From Chloroflexaceae bacterium (lineage in GTDB: Bacteria; Chloroflexota; Chloroflexia; Chloroflexales; Chloroflexaceae): a stretch of 64,000 nucleotides of DNA. Positions 15,590 through 63,569 of the stretch are shown in pieces. The stretch spans positions 55,107-119,106 of the forward strand of contig DAOTUI010000072.1 in NCBI GenBank assembly GCA_034437035.1, in the 5' to 3' direction. A program made the translations under genes and the position numbers. Within the stretch, counting starts at the first letter, position 1. Every line of letters begins with the position of its first letter. The notes under the pieces are model-generated. The model ran no database searches. It saw nothing but the letters and a program-made list of their open reading frames with translations, and was not told the origin of the DNA.

Positions 15590-15816
15590 AATACCTTTCA
15601 AATAACCGGATCTACGCGGTAGGCGATCAAACCGGACGTTTGACCAGATGTGAGCCAGACTCGCCTGCGGCAGCATGGTACTGTTTTATCTTTTCCACAA
15701 AACATTTTCACAAAGTGAAAATGTTTTGTGGAAAAGGATGGTTTCTTCCGCCCTGCCGGAGGCGCTATCTCCTTCCAGGGGAGTGACCGTGTACCTCGTC
15801 TTATTTGAAAGGTATT
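15590..15816 (-). mobile_element. MITE-like repeat, long form, copy A (reverse core orientation)
   Basis: Outer perfect 16-bp IR AATACCTTTCAAATAA/TTATTTGAAAGGTATT. Core arms are TCGCCTGCGGCAGCATGGTAC and TTCCGCCCTGCCGGAGGCG. Central 22-bp perfect palindrome lies at 15690-15736. Confidence 0.8.
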
Positions 15817-36051: not shown

Positions 36052-36268
36052 CAGGACGTACGCGGTGTGCGTGCAAACGGACCGTTTGCTCTCGATAACG
36101 GCGTATTTCGCCTGCGGCAGCATGGTACGTTTTTGTCTTTTTCCGAAACATGTGGCTCTCCGAGCCACATGTTTCGGAAAAAGACTGTCCCATTCCACCC
36201 TGCCGGAGGCGCATCGGGCCAGTTGTCCAGGCAGACGCCTGGGTTGGGAACCAACCGCGTAACTCCTG
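36052..36268 (-). mobile_element. MITE-like repeat copy B1 with perfect 7-bp TSD TCAATAA
   Basis: TIRs CAGGACGTACGCGGT / ACCGCGTAACTCCTG. TSD at 36045-36051 and 36269-36275. Central 24-bp perfect palindrome at 36135-36185. Confidence 0.9.
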
Positions 36269-36276
36269 TCAATAAT

Positions 36277-36450
36277 ACACGTTACGGGGTCACTGACCCG
36301 ACAGGAGATTCCGCCTCCGACAGGGCAGAAGAAATCATCTTTTTTCACAAAAATTTTGTAAAAAAAGATCAAAAGTACCATGCTGCCGCAGGCGAATCGG
36401 GCTTTTGGTTGGTCAACAGACCGAAATAAGGCTGCACCGTGTAACGCGTG
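36277..36450 (+). mobile_element. MITE-like repeat copy B2 (shortened, degenerate central palindrome)
   Basis: Arms TTCCGCCTCCGACAGGGCAGAAG and GTACCATGCTGCCGCAGGCGAA. The central stem is reduced to about 14 bp with 1 mismatch. Confidence 0.7.
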
Positions 36451-36457
36451 GAAATAC

Positions 36458-36527
36458 CAGGACGTACGCGGTGGATGGTCAAACCGGACGTTTGACCAGA
36501 TGGAAGCCAGACTCGCCTGCGGCAGCA
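36458..36527 (-). mobile_element. Half MITE copy B3 (one TIR, CAAAC hairpin and one arm), abutting the pfkB-family stop codon
   Basis: CAGGACGTACGCGGTGGATGGTCAAACCGGACGTTTGACCAGATGGAAGCCAGACTCGCCTGCGGCAGCA is near-identical to the left part of copy A, then the match stops. Confidence 0.65.
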
Positions 36528-50958: not shown

Positions 50959-51165
50959 CAAATAACCGGGCTTCCGTGGTTCCTTACCTGGAAGAGGATA
51001 TCGCCTCCGGCAGGATGGAAGAAACCATCCTTTTTTCACAAAGTGGAAATTTTTTGTGAAAAAAGATAAAAATGTACCATGCTGCCGCAGGCGAAACCGT
51101 TCTGTAGCGGAGCAAACGTCCGGTTTGCACTGCTACTACGCAGGTTCTGCTCTTTGAAAGGTATT
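50959..51165 (+). mobile_element. MITE-like repeat, long form, copy C1 (forward core)
   Basis: Outer ends AATACCTTTCAAATAA / CTCTTTGAAAGGTATT. Arms ATCGCCTCCGGCAGGATGGAAG and GTACCATGCTGCCGCAGGCGAA. The central stem is 13 bp. Confidence 0.85.
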
Positions 51166-51227: not shown

Positions 51228-51424
51228 CACAAGTTACGCTGTCACGAACCTGAAAGGACATTTTGCCTCCGGCAGGGCGGAAGGCTCCTGTCTTTGTTCA
51301 CAAAACATTTGCACTCTGTGCAAATGTTTTGTGAACAAAGATACAAAAGTACCATGCTGCCGCAGGCGAATCTGACTTCCATCTGATCAAACATCCGATT
51401 TGTCCACCCACCGCGTAACGCGTG
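51228..51424 (+). mobile_element. MITE-like repeat copy C2
   Basis: TIRs CACAAGTTACGCTGT / ACCGCGTAACGCGTG. Central 24-bp perfect palindrome at 51291-51341. Both conserved arms are present. Confidence 0.85.
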
Positions 51425-52415: not shown

Positions 52416-52949
52416 ATGGAGCCGGACTACGCTATCGTGCCGGCTCAACCGGAGCATCTGCCCTACCTGGATGCGATCGAACTGGCGGCAGTTCAGCAGT
52501 TTGCGCCCTGGGGTATCCCTGAGCATATTCTGAATACCACCATGGGTCTGGAGGATCTGCAGCATGCGCATGCTGCCGGACTGCTCTGGGTGGCACTTTT
52601 ACCCGGTGGTGAGCCGGTAGGCTTTGCCCTGGTGAAGCTGCTGACCACAGGGCCATATCTGGCGGAAGTCGATGTTCACCCGGCCCATGGCCGGCGCGGT
52701 CTGGGCCGTCGGTTGGTCACCACCGTCTGTGATTGGGCCGCAGCCGCCGGGCATTCCGCCGTGACGCTGATTACCTTCCGTGACATTCCCTGGAATGCGC
52801 CCTTCTATGCCCGCCTGGGATTTCGCGCGCTGGACCCGGCGGAACTCGCGCCCGAACTGACCGAGCGGGTGCGCCGGGAGGCTGCCCACGGTCTTGACCC
52901 GGCACAGCGCGTGGTCATGCGCTACGACATCCATCCAGACGCGGTGTAG
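52416..52949 (+). CDS. GNAT-family N-acetyltransferase
   Basis: VHPAHGRRGLGRRL (R/QxxGxG/A) motif. GGAGGAG SD. Confidence 0.8.
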   Translation: MEPDYAIVPAQPEHLPYLDAIELAAVQQFAPWGIPEHILNTTMGLEDLQHAHAAGLLWVALLPGGEPVGFALVKLLTTGPYLAEVDVHPAHGRRGLGRRLVTTVCDWAAAAGHSAVTLITFRDIPWNAPFYARLGFRALDPAELAPELTERVRREAAHGLDPAQRVVMRYDIHPDAV

Positions 52950-54231: not shown

Positions 54232-54852
54232 ATGACTACCTACACCGAACAACAGGCGTGTACTCCAATCGCCCTGAATGTGAAGAACCTCAACCAGAAC
54301 GCGGTACTCCCCTATGGCATGCAAGTTGACCATGTCTTTTCGGCAATGACCGATTTCCTTGACTTCCTGGGATTTGTGAATAACCAGTTGCACAGCAAAG
54401 GGCTAACGCGCCTGGAGTCAATGCTCATGCCTGCAAATTTTAGCAGTATTGTCGGCGAGTTTATGACAGTGACAATTCCCAAACACTGCGCCAGTATTAC
54501 GCGAAACAAATACCATAACGGCCATCCTGATCTGATACCGGCAGGAATGTTTCCCAACAACGAGGTACAACATTCGACTACTGGCATAGAGGTCAAAGCG
54601 TCGCGTTATTCACGCGGCTGGCAAGGACATAATCCGGAGGATATCTGGTTGATGGTCTTTGTGTTCGATAGTAACCGCGCCCGGGATACGCAACCCAGAC
54701 CATTCAAGTTTGTGAAGGTGGTAGGTGCGCAACTGGCAAAAAGCGACTGGCTTTTCTCAGGTAGGTCGGCACAGAGTCGCCGTACCATTACCGCCAGTGT
54801 TACCAATACCGGCTATCAAAAGATGATGGCGAACTGGCTCTACAAAGCCTGA
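54232..54852 (+). CDS. Candidate type II restriction endonuclease (PD-(D/E)xK)
   Basis: HPD-x20-IEVK fits PD...(D/E)xK. It is convergent with, and 13 bp 3'-overlapping, a DNA methyltransferase gene. No other family motif recognised. Confidence 0.55.
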   Translation: MTTYTEQQACTPIALNVKNLNQNAVLPYGMQVDHVFSAMTDFLDFLGFVNNQLHSKGLTRLESMLMPANFSSIVGEFMTVTIPKHCASITRNKYHNGHPDLIPAGMFPNNEVQHSTTGIEVKASRYSRGWQGHNPEDIWLMVFVFDSNRARDTQPRPFKFVKVVGAQLAKSDWLFSGRSAQSRRTITASVTNTGYQKMMANWLYKA

Positions 54853-55805
54853 ACTTCTACCAGATCCAGCAGATTCAACTGCCCAACCTCCGCTTCCGGC
54901 CGTAGATCGGCCAGCCGTGGTATGGCCTGCTGACTCAATTCAAAATAATCCCGGAACCGCTCGATGCCGATGCAGGCCAGACCCTGCGCTTCGGCGGCAG
55001 CAACAGTTGAGCCGGAACCCATAAACGGATCGAGGATCAGCCCCGTCCCCAACGGCAGTGCGGCCCGAACAACCTGACGCAGGAAGGATTGTGGTTTCAA
55101 ACTGGGATGATCAGCAATATCCCGCTCTCGCCGGGGCGTCCGCTCGCTAACAATAACATCGCTGAAGGGCTGCTCCGCACTGATCCGCCGCAGGCCACCC
55201 GTGCCATAGGTGCGCAGACAATCGCTGACCTTCATCCCCGGTGGTAGCGGCTTGCGGAAGATTCCCCAGGGCTCATAACAGCCGCGTGGCAACGAGCAGA
55301 CCTCGGAGAATTCATCTTCGGCGTTTTTGGGCCGGTCGCCGCCCCGCAGTGTCCGCACCAGGCGGATCAACTCGCCCCGAAACTCTAACCCACCCTCAAC
55401 CAGTGCTGCGAACAGCAGTTGCGACAGGAAGGCATTACTGGCAATACACACATGACCGCCGGGAAGCAGTGCCCGCACCGCTAACCTGCTCCACTCATAA
55501 AAAAACCGCTGGAGCAGTGCCCGCTCTTTCAGTGTGAGTGCCGTAAAGCGTGGAAGCGGTGCCCGGTTGCTCCCATCAAAGGAAGGTGGAATGCGCCAGA
55601 TGCCGCCCTGACCACTGGCCCGCTTCGCCATCTGCTCAAAGTCATACTCCTTCACGCCATAGGGCGGATCGGTGACAATGGCGTGAAGACTATCTCCCGG
55701 AATACGGCTCATCCACTCAAAACAGTCAGCATGTAGCACCAGCGAAGTACGGAACTGCACTGACTGATAATCCAGTGCCAAAGCAGCAGGTTCGGTAGCA
55801 GACAT
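54840..55805 (-). CDS. Beta-class DNA methyltransferase (DPPY, probably N6-adenine; N4-cytosine not excluded)
   Basis: Motif IV TDPPYGV lies near the N-terminus and motif I LDPFMGSGST near the C-terminus (beta permutation). Confidence 0.85.
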   Translation of the reverse strand: MSATEPAALALDYQSVQFRTSLVLHADCFEWMSRIPGDSLHAIVTDPPYGVKEYDFEQMAKRASGQGGIWRIPPSFDGSNRAPLPRFTALTLKERALLQRFFYEWSRLAVRALLPGGHVCIASNAFLSQLLFAALVEGGLEFRGELIRLVRTLRGGDRPKNAEDEFSEVCSLPRGCYEPWGIFRKPLPPGMKVSDCLRTYGTGGLRRISAEQPFSDVIVSERTPRRERDIADHPSLKPQSFLRQVVRAALPLGTGLILDPFMGSGSTVAAAEAQGLACIGIERFRDYFELSQQAIPRLADLRPEAEVGQLNLLDLVEVQAL

Positions 55806-55807
55806 GG

Positions 55808-56053
55808 CTAGATTTCCTCAATTGACTCACCCAGCGCATAGACCGGGCTTAACTCGCGCAAGATCTTTTCCAACTTCTGCCGATCAGCCGCATCACCCGC
55901 CAGGATGTTCTCGAAGTCAGCCACGCTGAGGATTATAGCCTGAGGGGTATTCCGGCGGCGAACAATATAACGCGTGTTGTTCTGAACCACATCATCAAGC
56001 ACCCGCCCAAAGTTATTCTGGGCCTCGGTTGAAGCAATCAGTTTGGTTCCCAT
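55808..56053 (-). CDS. Phd/YefM-family antitoxin-like protein, translationally coupled to the methyltransferase
   Basis: STEAQNNFGRVLDDV...YIVRRRNTPQAIILSVADFENI matches the Phd/YefM N-terminal fold pattern. Stop TAG at 55808-55810 lies 2 nt from the methyltransferase ATG, with a GAGGAAA SD inside its 3' end. Confidence 0.8.
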   Translation of the reverse strand: MGTKLIASTEAQNNFGRVLDDVVQNNTRYIVRRRNTPQAIILSVADFENILAGDAADRQKLEKILRELSPVYALGESIEEI

Positions 56054-56074
56054 AGTTACCCGAAATGACTATAG

Positions 56075-56111
56075 TAGCTAATTTGAATAAGTGGATTGTA
56101 TAGCTAATTTG
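56075..56111. promoter_or_regulatory. Two direct TAGCTAATTTG repeats (26-bp spacing) upstream of the phd-like gene
   Basis: Copies at 56075-56085 and 56101-56111. TAGCTA is itself palindromic. Confidence 0.35.
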
Positions 56112-56166
56112 TGTGACTGTCAAGCGAGAAAAAGTAGCCTGGGGCTAAGAGGGAATTACGCTTTAA

Positions 56167-56361
56167 CAGGACTTACGCAGTTCTCCATCTGGAGATGTAT
56201 TTCGCCTCCGGCAGGGCGGAACAGACCACCTTTTTCACAACATTTTTGCACAATGTGCAAAAATGTTGTGAAAAAAGATCAAAACGTACCACGCTGCCGC
56301 AGGCGAATCGGGCTTTCATCCGGTCAAACGTCCCGTTTGCATGTCAACTGCATAAGTCCTG
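56167..56361 (+). mobile_element. MITE-like repeat copy D with perfect 7-bp TSD GCTTTAA
   Basis: TIRs CAGGACTTACGCAGT / ACTGCATAAGTCCTG. TSD at 56160-56166 and 56362-56368. The central perfect palindrome lies within 56230-56276. Confidence 0.92.
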
Positions 56362-56487
56362 GCTTTAAGGTGTGATCCGGATGGGGAGGGCAGTTCTCAA
56401 GCTGTACACCCCCAAATCTCGGTGCTCTCGGTGTTCTCGGTGGCGCAAAAGACCGCAGACGGCGGTGCTCTCCGTAACCCTCTGTCG

Positions 56488-57195
56488 CTAAACCGAACCA
56501 ACTTTGCGCGCCCGCACAACGAGAAACCAGGGGTTGCGCATGACGCGCTCGTACAGGTCGGGCGCTACCCGCTGAAAATCGGCGGTAGGCTGCGGCTCCA
56601 GCAGGCGCTCGATCACAAAGCCGGCCGCAGCCGGCGCCTCACTGATAGCCGTTAACGGTCGCCGGTAGAACTGCACCGTTCCAATAGCCTCCCAGGTATC
56701 CTCCAGCAGGGTCAGGGCGAAGTAATCGCCGGTCTGAAACATCTGCCAGTCCATGCAGGGGTGATGGGTGGAGAAAACCAGCACGCCCTGGGGCCGCAGC
56801 ACACGCGCGAACTCGCACAACGTCGGTTGCCAGTCTTGCAGGTAGTGCAGCACCAGGGAGCAGACAATCGTATCGAACGCGCCGGCGGCGGCAAAGTCCA
56901 GCGGGCGGGTCAGGTCGGCCTGCCGCACCGTCGCGCGCCCCCCCACATGCTGCCGGGTCAACGCCACAAATTCGGCGTTCAGATCGCAGGCCGTGACCGT
57001 CGCTCCCTGATCGAGCAGATACTCCGCATACCAACCGGACCCGCAACCGACATCCAGCACCCGGTTCTGCGCCAGGGAGGGGAGCAGCGACAGAACGGCG
57101 GGCCGTTCATAAAAGGCATTCATCGGGTTGGTATCAACCTGTCGGGCATACTGCCCGGCGATCCCCTGGTAGCTTGCGCCGGTATGCTCAGGCAT
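56488..57195 (-). CDS. Class I SAM-dependent methyltransferase
   Basis: VLDVGCGSGWYAEYL motif I and DTIVCSLVLHY motif. Confidence 0.8.
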   Translation of the reverse strand: MPEHTGASYQGIAGQYARQVDTNPMNAFYERPAVLSLLPSLAQNRVLDVGCGSGWYAEYLLDQGATVTACDLNAEFVALTRQHVGGRATVRQADLTRPLDFAAAGAFDTIVCSLVLHYLQDWQPTLCEFARVLRPQGVLVFSTHHPCMDWQMFQTGDYFALTLLEDTWEAIGTVQFYRRPLTAISEAPAAAGFVIERLLEPQPTADFQRVAPDLYERVMRNPWFLVVRARKVGSV

Positions 57196-57207
57196 CAATG
57201 GGAGTTT

Positions 57208-57280
57208 CTGTGCTGTCGCAGGCGATTCTGCCGTTCACCGGGTAAAATGCCCGGTTTGATGAACGACCGCGTAAGTCGTG
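57208..57280 (+). mobile_element. Half MITE copy (3' arm, CAAAC-type hairpin, right TIR only)
   Basis: GCTGTCGCAGGCGATT...ACCGGGTAAAATGCCCGGT...ACCGCGTAAGTCGTG lies between the two methyltransferase genes. Confidence 0.6.
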
Positions 57281-58709: not shown

Positions 58710-58905
58710 CAGGAGTTACGCGGTCACGAACCCAAAAGGACATTTCGCCTCCGGCAGGGCGGAAGAAACCACTCTTTTTCACAAGATTTTTGCACTTAGT
58801 GCAAAAATCTTGTGAAAAAGAAGGAAAAGTACCACGCTGCCGCAGGCGAAATCCGCCGTTATCGGGAACAAAGGACCCGTTTGAACGCGCACTGCGTAAG
58901 TCCTG
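58710..58905 (+). mobile_element. MITE-like repeat copy E with perfect 7-bp TSD TCAATCA
   Basis: TIRs CAGGAGTTACGCGGT / ACTGCGTAAGTCCTG. TSD at 58703-58709 and 58906-58912. Central 22-bp perfect palindrome at 58774-58820. Confidence 0.92.
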
Positions 58906-61917: not shown

Positions 61918-62107
61918 CACGACGTACGCAGTGGGTGCTCAAACCAGAGGTTTTATCCCGGTAGCACAATGCATTCTGCCTGCGGCAGCATGGTACTCTT
62001 TTTCACAAAAATTTGCTCACGGAGCAAATTTTTGTGAAAAAGATCTGGGTTCTTCCGCCCTGCCGGAGGCGAGATCCGCTTTCAAACGCGTGACTGCGTA
62101 ACGCCTG
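61918..62107 (-). mobile_element. MITE-like repeat copy F (reverse core)
   Basis: TIRs CACGACGTACGCAGT / ACTGCGTAACGCCTG. Central 21-bp perfect palindrome at 61998-62042. Flanks TTATGTA/TTTTTTA may be a decayed TSD. Confidence 0.85.
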
Positions 62108-62126
62108 TTTTTTAGACAATAGAGTC

Positions 62127-63374: not shown

Positions 63375-63569
63375 CATGCGTTACACGAGCCTATGTTCAA
63401 TGGGGAATGGCGCCTCTAGCCGGACCGAAGAAACCCGCTTTTTCACAAAAATGTTGCACTTTATGCAACATTTTTGTGAAAAAAGATCAAAATGTACCAC
63501 GCTGCCGCAGGCCAAGACTGCCTTTGTGGATGTACATGTCTGATTTGTATGCCCATTGCGTAACTCGTA
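63375..63569 (+). mobile_element. MITE-like repeat copy G (5' arm decayed)
   Basis: Central 20-bp perfect palindrome at 63439-63483. The 3' arm GTACCACGCTGCCGCAGGCCAA is present. TIRs are degenerate (CATGCGTTACACGAG / ATTGCGTAACTCGTA). Confidence 0.75.

Follow-up and report, generated by a model that had tools for sequence, protein, structure and literature searches.

Restriction-modification (R-M) systems must make their methylase ahead of their nuclease on entering a new cell. Here, we describe a putative Type II R-M cassette in which a gene for a Phd/YefM-domain protein, a member of an antitoxin family, directly precedes the methyltransferase gene; it lies in a 64,000-nucleotide stretch from a Chloroflexaceae bacterium (assembly GCA_034437035.1, contig DAOTUI010000072.1, positions 55,107 to 119,106 of the forward strand), hereafter the window. 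The known modes of R-M control are promoter methylation, helix-turn-helix (HTH) repressors fused to the methyltransferase, antisense RNA and HTH controller (C) proteins (PMC3874152; PMC12707154). C proteins act on a cassette promoter and are thought to set the order of methyltransferase (M) before restriction endonuclease (R) in a new cell (PMC12707154), and the fused N-terminal repressor of M.SsoII, M.Ecl18kI, M.EcoRII and M.MspI limits M transcription, which indirectly favors R (PMC12707154; PMC3874152). Among antitoxins, YefM, the archetype of the family, represses its own operon as a dimer bound to neighboring palindromes, each with TGTACA as its 6-bp core (PMC1802561). Our full-text literature search found no R-M regulator of the Phd/YefM type, though the wider literature or REBASE may hold one.

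The cassette in the window is laid out as follows.

54232..54852, + strand: putative Type II restriction endonuclease R, 206 aa (open reading frame (ORF) call)
54840..55805, - strand: beta-class (DPPY) DNA methyltransferase M, 321 aa (ORF call, Pfam, PADLOC)
54840..54852, no strand: overlap of the R and M 3' ends, 13 bp (ORF coordinates)
55808..56053, - strand: Phd/YefM-domain protein, 81 aa, putative phd–M autorepressor (PF02604, TIGR01552)
55814..55819, - strand: Shine-Dalgarno-like GAGGAA for M (read from the sequence)

R and M are convergent, and phd lies on the same strand as M, opposite to R. The phd stop codon (TAG, 55810-55808) is separated from the M start codon (ATG, 55805-55803) by 2 nt, and the GAGGAA of M falls within the last phd codons, 8 nt ahead of the ATG; relatives have comparable purine-rich stretches ahead of M. 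The ORF coordinates confirm both the 13-bp overlap and the 2-nt gap reported in a preliminary description of this DNA, which a model had made from the sequence alone. Our best reading is that the Phd-like protein is an exapted antitoxin DNA-binding module that serves as an R-M regulator, and it probably autorepresses the phd–M operon. That such a protein might act as a controller had been raised in the preliminary description, and the idea is supported by what sequence comparison establishes: the gene set, an exclusive Phd–M linkage (77/77), a conserved promoter and phased boxes that track Phd.

The 81-aa protein matches Pfam PhdYeFM_antitox (PF02604) over residues 7-58 with an E-value of 5.8e-10 and 39.3 bits (cut-off 29.8), as well as TIGR01552 with 29.9 bits (cut-off 20.8). 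Its predicted secondary structure is beta-alpha-beta-beta-alpha-alpha, and a Pfam search returned no HTH family match at E-values up to 0.1. The subfamily to which it belongs comprises ~90 loci whose Phd-like proteins are 54-79% identical. An exhaustive profile search of 1.84 billion representatives yielded 144 Phd-like matches, of which the full-length ones fall into ~35 clusters only, other Phd/YefM proteins matching positions 1-55 only. Two cluster representatives, P0252 (141 aa) and P0256 (151 aa), match the profile over its full length (positions 2-79) and carry 60-70 extra C-terminal residues that gave no Pfam match; these extensions are either real or gene-calling errors. A search among long Phd-domain proteins found no natural Phd-methylase fusion, and one 414-aa Phd-domain match carries a xylose-isomerase-like domain.

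Within the subfamily, the Phd-like gene is tied to M. Of 77 genome loci, 16 have it, and in each of these it ends just ahead of M. We also performed the reverse test by searching metagenomes with the Phd-like alignment: in all 77 relatives with enough contig (54-75% identity), this M lies directly downstream, 0-29 nt from the Phd-like gene, and phd without M was never seen among these 77 testable loci. Three further metagenome loci, with less than 160 nt of contig remaining, were left out. In 64/64 distinct loci, the distance from phd stop to M start is at most 29 nt (median 4.5 nt), and the two genes overlap at several junctions, some of the ATGA type. This spacing bears out the tight coupling deduced earlier from the window. 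Independent gene calls list PF02604 followed by PF01555 and a convergent unannotated protein of ~210 aa. One identical Phd protein accompanies M and R in two different genomic neighborhoods, and the three genes therefore move as a unit. In a neighbor-joining tree of M, the loci with phd (Phd+) form two large blocks with isolated losses only, and Fitch parsimony assigns 5 state changes in phd presence over 120 M sequences.

Where the Phd/YefM family has a cognate toxin downstream, a methyltransferase is found here in 77/77 loci. The absence of a toxin partner, previously noted for the surroundings of phd, holds in the window and across the 77 genome loci: no Doc, YoeB, RelE or PIN gene is present in the former or conserved in the latter. 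The small ORFs beside phd (56054-56487) fall inside a dispersed repeat and have no significant Pfam match, and clustering of neighboring ORFs over the 77 genome loci revealed no conserved gene besides R, M and Phd. The GNAT gene at 52416-52949 and the other neighbors are ordinary genes, syntenic with those of the related locus L001.

Upstream of phd, we identified a near-consensus promoter and two candidate operator boxes.

56095..56123, - strand: sigma-70-type phd–M promoter, 11/12 consensus positions
56101..56111, - strand: predicted operator box 1, CAAATTAGCTA on the coding strand (repeat search, relatives)
56075..56085, - strand: predicted operator box 2, CAAATTAGCTA (repeat search, relatives)

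The promoter consists of TTGACA (56123-56118), a 17-nt spacer and TACAAT (56100-56095). We compared 72 distinct (non-identical) Phd+ upstream regions: an exact TTGACA is found in 61/72, a promoter score of at least 10/12 in 64/72 and a 17-nt spacer in 54/72. Promoters scoring at least 10/12 are present upstream of M in 4 of 56 Phd-less loci and upstream of R in 3 of 39 Phd+ loci, so that near-consensus promoters are almost confined to loci with the repressor gene. No conserved R promoter was found, the regions upstream of R being unconserved.

The TAGCTA core of box 1 abuts the -10 hexamer inside the promoter spacer, a placement also seen in L135, L141 and L146, and the core of box 2 begins 14 nt past the -10 hexamer, just beyond the expected transcription start. 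The two direct repeats recorded earlier upstream of phd were thus recovered at 56075-56085 and 56101-56111, and TAGCTAATTTG occurs exactly at these two places in the 64 kb. Shuffled sequences average 0.36 matches, and two are reached in 5 of 100 shuffles, making the repeat pair weak evidence by itself. Related loci extend it: a TAGCTA core is found in the same place near the -10 hexamer in 65 of 72, and the relatives' boxes are phased at +1/2, +10/11 and +19/20 after this hexamer. Their consensus, TTAGCTAA, is an 8-bp palindrome. Boxes are present in 14/16 Phd+ genome loci versus 4/57 Phd- genome loci (Fisher p = 8.7e-10), with none upstream of R and almost none elsewhere inside the cassettes. 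By this comparison, the boxes follow the regulator, not the enzymes.

Natural variants allow phd to be considered separately from each enzyme. The closest relative, L001 (97% identical), lacks 1448 bp corresponding to 55823-57270 of the window (junction L001:7591/7592), a deletion that spans phd except its last 5 codons, the promoter/operator, the dispersed repeat and a class-I S-adenosylmethionine-dependent (SAM) methyltransferase gene (56488-57198), and it retains intact R and M. L001 represents either a natural phd knockout or, being a metagenome-assembled genome (MAG), an assembly artefact. L023, from Ca. Oscillochloris fontis, has an intact R and no phd and is nested among Phd+ loci in the M tree; at L023:7560-7650 (- strand), a TTGACA promoter and a degenerate box-like TATTAACCAAGG run straight into the M ribosome-binding site. 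Conversely, phd–M is kept in loci where R is gone (L143, downstream of 5216), reduced to a C-terminal remnant (L104:5195-5437), or deleted or fragmentary (L101, L133, L139, L141 and L157). We interpret the phd–M loci without an intact R as orphan methylases that retain the Phd-like gene. Taken as sequence variants, these loci argue for a regulator of M and against an antitoxin of R.

Other small DNA-binding genes occupy the slot upstream of M in some Phd-less lineages of the R-M family: a MerR gene in L029, L040, L067 and L070 (PF00376, 8e-13), an HTH_17 gene in L061, an XRE gene in L075 and a zinc-ribbon gene (CxxC...CPKCKSPYW) in L019 and L069. L024 (6623-7747) encodes the zinc ribbon and M as one in-frame fusion of 374 aa. 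Non-orthologous replacement of regulators would be the simplest account of this slot. A classical XRE-type C gene overlaps the R start in L172 (742-963; Acidiphilium multivorum plasmid pACMV5) and in L030, as in the textbook layout of C and R, which adds to the evidence that R is the endonuclease. The earlier statement that the Phd-like gene lies where a controller would sit needs correction for classical C genes, which sit upstream of R and not of M.

M matches Pfam N6_N4_Mtase (E 1.9e-17) and PADLOC MTase_II PDLC03215 (E 2.8e-103), and its sequence relatives in the PDB are CcrM, RsrI, MboIIA and DpnA. The DPPY motif (residues 46-49) is N-terminal to DPFMGSGST (FxGxG), located near residue 270 towards the C-terminus, and the motif order is therefore that of the beta class. 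On these matches, M is assigned as a beta-class N6-adenine/N4-cytosine DNA methyltransferase. It stands convergent beside R in 77/80 genome loci from different species of many phyla.

R carries the putative catalytic residues P99-D100 and E120-V121-K122, a PD-x19-ExK motif whose PD and ExK residues show no variation among 25 family members (64-74% identity to the window protein); the signature in the preliminary description is thus present and conserved, with a spacing of x19 in place of the x20 given there. All 3489 clusters of R homologues are named 'hypothetical' protein. R has no Pfam or NCBIfam match, its sole family match is a weak one to PADLOC REase_II (E 0.0034), and a sequence search against the PDB gave no meaningful match, leaving the fold search alone as informative. 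An AlphaFold2 (AF2) model built on the family alignment reached a predicted local distance difference test (pLDDT) score of 91 and a predicted TM-score (pTM) of 0.89, and the best 30 PDB structures that Foldseek matched to it belong without exception to Type II restriction endonucleases of the EcoRV-like branch, with NaeI first (E 1.5e-4), followed by EcoRV, NlaIV, BglI and SfiI, at modest TM-scores of 0.35-0.44. The structure prediction proposed earlier for the 206-aa protein thus returned a nuclease fold with Type II restriction endonuclease matches only, and on this model the protein is most likely the restriction endonuclease of the pair. When palindrome avoidance was pooled over host loci totalling 1.2 Mb, it pointed to no single 6-mer as the recognition site: many 6-mers are depleted there, the lowest being CTCGAG with an observed/expected ratio of 0.28. 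The fold match of R and the conserved R/M pairing bear out the original identification of a Type II R-M pair.

The 13-bp overlap of R and M leaves no room for an intergenic terminator, and no terminator-like site was found between the two genes in the window. Their 3' ends overlap in 115/127 related loci. We considered this overlap as a trait specific to Phd+ loci and rejected it, as it is family-wide whether phd is present or absent. A terminator-like hairpin on the R-sense strand, ~450 nt into the M gene (55303-55321, + strand), is a possible end of the R transcript. Another lies directly upstream of the phd -35 element and may insulate the phd promoter from upstream transcription.

56135..56147, - strand: terminator-like hairpin and T-run (consensus match only)

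We propose the following mechanism. The phd and M genes would form a single operon under the near-consensus promoter, and the Phd-like protein, presumably a dimer like other members of its family, would bind the TTAGCTAA-type boxes across the -10 region and transcription start and thereby repress its own operon. On entry into a naive cell, where no repressor is present, a burst of M would protect the genome, after which accumulating repressor would lower M to a maintenance level. Strong early phd–M transcription would dampen R through collision or antisense RNA, and later repression of phd–M would allow R to rise. Since R has no conserved promoter and overlaps M convergently without a terminator, phd–M transcription probably dampens R and releases it on repression; this is the weakest step of the proposal. 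Binding to DNA and repression are what we infer from the comparison, and this holds most of all for R timing, in which our confidence is lower than in autorepression.

Several observations weigh against autorepression by an exapted antitoxin module. The Phd-like gene is missing from 61 of the 77 genome loci and most of these show no recognizable regulator in the slot, so a regulator is not essential. The window operator is atypical, its two boxes being 26 bp apart (-12 and +14) and not in tandem 10-bp phasing. The C-terminal third of the Phd-like protein is conserved and subfamily-specific (R58, R66, E67, P70, Y72 and G75), for which a plain repressor has no obvious need. The AF2 monomer model of the Phd-like protein is poor (pLDDT 58), its Foldseek search was non-significant (top match, the YefM-family protein RelJ, E 0.35), and its profile search against the PDB was likewise not significant (YefM, E 0.58), so that the fold assignment rests on the Pfam and TIGRFAM matches. 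The structural check suggested earlier for the 81-aa protein therefore places it in Phd/YefM by Pfam and TIGR01552, its model and fold search being uninformative. Timing by convergent transcription comes from gene geometry alone, and the whole regulatory case is built on comparative sequence analysis.

The conserved C-terminus could be explained by a dual-function regulator of the toxin-antitoxin (TA) kind, an explanation that we regard as unlikely. The Phd-like protein would repress the operon while its C-terminal segment binds M or R, the partner acting as co-repressor or being itself modulated, such that the operon would sense the level of M or R as in the conditional cooperativity of Phd-Doc and YefM-YoeB. 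The retention of the listed C-terminal residues across the subfamily and the restriction of full-length matches to ~35 clusters of 1.84 billion representatives are in line with this, as are the M gene in the position of a toxin gene and the canonical family, whose members bind the toxin through the C-terminus and repress more strongly with it (PMC1802561; PMC3874152). However, conservation is clearly lower in the C-terminus than in the N-terminal domain (0.56 vs 0.76 as mean top-residue frequency), the C-terminus could instead serve oligomerization between adjacent boxes, and sister clades have ordinary small transcription factors in the same slot. It is similarly doubtful that the Phd-like protein still behaves in every respect as a type II antitoxin, its C-terminal segment binding M (or R) as a co-repressor in place of a toxin. 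The enzyme-to-regulator ratio would then tune the operon, as in conditional cooperativity, and, through the proteolysis of a labile Phd, R-M expression would respond to stress or to cassette loss; if true, the cassette would be a molecular hybrid of the TA and R-M addiction modules. A true antitoxin that neutralizes the nuclease by direct binding, in a three-component TA-like module, had also been entertained in the preliminary description and is improbable. It would agree with membership in an antitoxin family, with the conserved C-terminal tail and with the lack of any other toxin nearby, but R is intact where phd is missing (L001, L023), phd was never part of 61/77 genome loci in which R and M are intact, phd–M outlasts the loss or decay of R (in L104 and L143, among others), and phd, which never occurs without M, is coupled to M and not to R. 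The natural variants thus disfavor direct neutralization.

The remaining explanations concern the boxes and the gene neighborhood. The TTAGCTAA boxes, palindromic like Type II sites and located in a promoter, could be or contain the recognition site of the R-M pair, placing the promoter under control of its methylation state as in CfrBI, and promoter methylation is a known mode of R-M control (PMC12707154). We give this very little weight, as the boxes track phd (14/16 vs 4/57) although R and M are 60-79% identical throughout, and TAGCTA is not notably avoided, with 6 occurrences in the window versus ~10 expected from a base-composition estimate. Orphan antitoxin genes are common, and the cassette is mobile with a dispersed repeat at its flank, so the phd-like gene might be the remnant of a TA locus beside or inside which the R-M pair landed. 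Such chance adjacency is hardly credible given ~90 loci that share spacing, promoter and boxes across varied organisms and contexts and encode a strongly conserved Phd-like protein, and protein identities of 54-79% exclude a single recently spread clone.

A scan of one genome per species recovered R-M relatives in 478 species at 60-99% identity, among the Chloroflexota, Cyanobacteria, Acidobacteriota, Planctomycetota, Verrucomicrobiota, Actinomycetota, Bacillota and Proteobacteria, with copies on mobilizable plasmids and on ten IMG/VR viral contigs. The closest relative of the window cassette is L001, a Chloroflexaceae MAG with 92-97% DNA identity. These occurrences indicate that R and M travel together as a mobile pair with a wide distribution. 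A distant branch (R 33% and M 53% identical) includes L171, from Citrobacter freundii pCAV1321-4938, and similar 4.9-kb Klebsiella plasmids; these are small ColE1-type mobilizable plasmids of clinical Enterobacteriaceae, on which R is annotated as 'hypothetical protein'. In the window, third-position G+C content is 0.58 in R and 0.62 in both M and Phd, compared with 0.67-0.78 in neighboring genes, so the lower value judged by eye for the nuclease gene is confirmed by calculation, and a dispersed repeat flanks the cassette.

56199..56361, no strand: dispersed intergenic repeat of ~140-165 bp with an internal palindrome at 56231-56275 (self-BLAST)

Self-BLAST detected at least 9 further copies of this repeat in the window at 70-93% identity (58742-58905, 15628-15764, 51260-51402, 63411-63515, 50963-51129, 36052-36211, 36348-36405, 36457-36526 and 61973-62109). 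It looks like a miniature inverted-repeat transposable element (MITE) or a repetitive extragenic palindromic (REP) element, and the flanking copy at 56199-56361 is the one described earlier as a MITE beside the cassette. Together with the low third-position G+C content, the repeat supports the horizontal acquisition inferred in the preliminary description. GNAT acetyltransferase genes lie close to the cassette in several unrelated contexts (L173:3426-3887, L174:2739-3633 and window 52416-52949), and a separate PemK/MazF pair is close by in L173; such proximity is probably coincidence or defence-island clustering.

Our analysis also bears on annotation. The ~90 genes of the subfamily annotated as 'type II toxin-antitoxin system Phd/YefM family antitoxin' are probably mislabelled, because they appear to encode R-M regulators rather than antitoxins, and neither Pfam nor NCBIfam has a model for the family of the 206-aa nuclease, with its 3489 clusters and 478 species. 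A single R-M family with a Phd-like, MerR, XRE, zinc-ribbon, classical C or no regulator offers a natural comparison set, which could show which regulatory designs are workable for establishing and maintaining a mobile defence system.

Compared with YefM-YoeB, Axe-Txe and Phd-Doc, the Phd-like protein has the same N-terminal family (PF02604, TIGR01552), and its gene likewise comes first in a tightly coupled bicistronic operon. The candidate operator shares with that of YefM the architecture of adjacent palindromes at the promoter, with a TAGCTA core in place of TGTACA. Unlike in TA operons, the gene downstream of phd encodes a protective DNA methyltransferase and not a toxin, the C-terminal segment is specific to the subfamily, and the only potentially harmful protein, R, is encoded on the opposite strand and is dispensable for phd retention. 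The proposed regulator would plainly exemplify the reuse, outside TA systems, of a DNA-binding module from an antitoxin.

The C proteins C.PvuII, C.BamHI, C.Esp1396I, C.Csp231I and C.Kpn2I are likewise small dedicated DNA-binding proteins of R-M cassettes, and the same R-M family has true C genes in pACMV5 and L030. C proteins have an XRE-type HTH, their genes lie upstream of R in the same transcript, and they act through C-boxes to activate and then repress. The protein described here has a Phd/YefM fold and no XRE-type HTH, its gene lies ahead of M, on the other strand from R, and its TTAGCTAA palindromes lie over the transcription start of phd–M with none upstream of R; only repression is suggested. 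By fold and by gene position, it does not belong to the C-protein family. M.SsoII and its kind resemble it in having a repressor that is tied to M and made in step with it, and the zinc ribbon–M fusion of L024 provides a parallel. They differ in that the window regulator is a separate polypeptide of non-HTH fold encoded 2 nt from M, and in that R is convergent rather than divergent, so that an effect on R would pass through convergent transcription rather than competing divergent promoters. As in EcoRI and Eco29kI, convergent R and M genes that overlap without a terminator would imply antisense transcripts; those systems use small intragenic antisense promoters, whereas the source proposed here is the main M promoter, gated by the repressor. 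Next to promoter methylation, methyltransferase-fused repressors, antisense RNA and C proteins, a Phd/YefM-fold repressor coupled to M would be a fifth solution to R-M timing, and one with a different fold.

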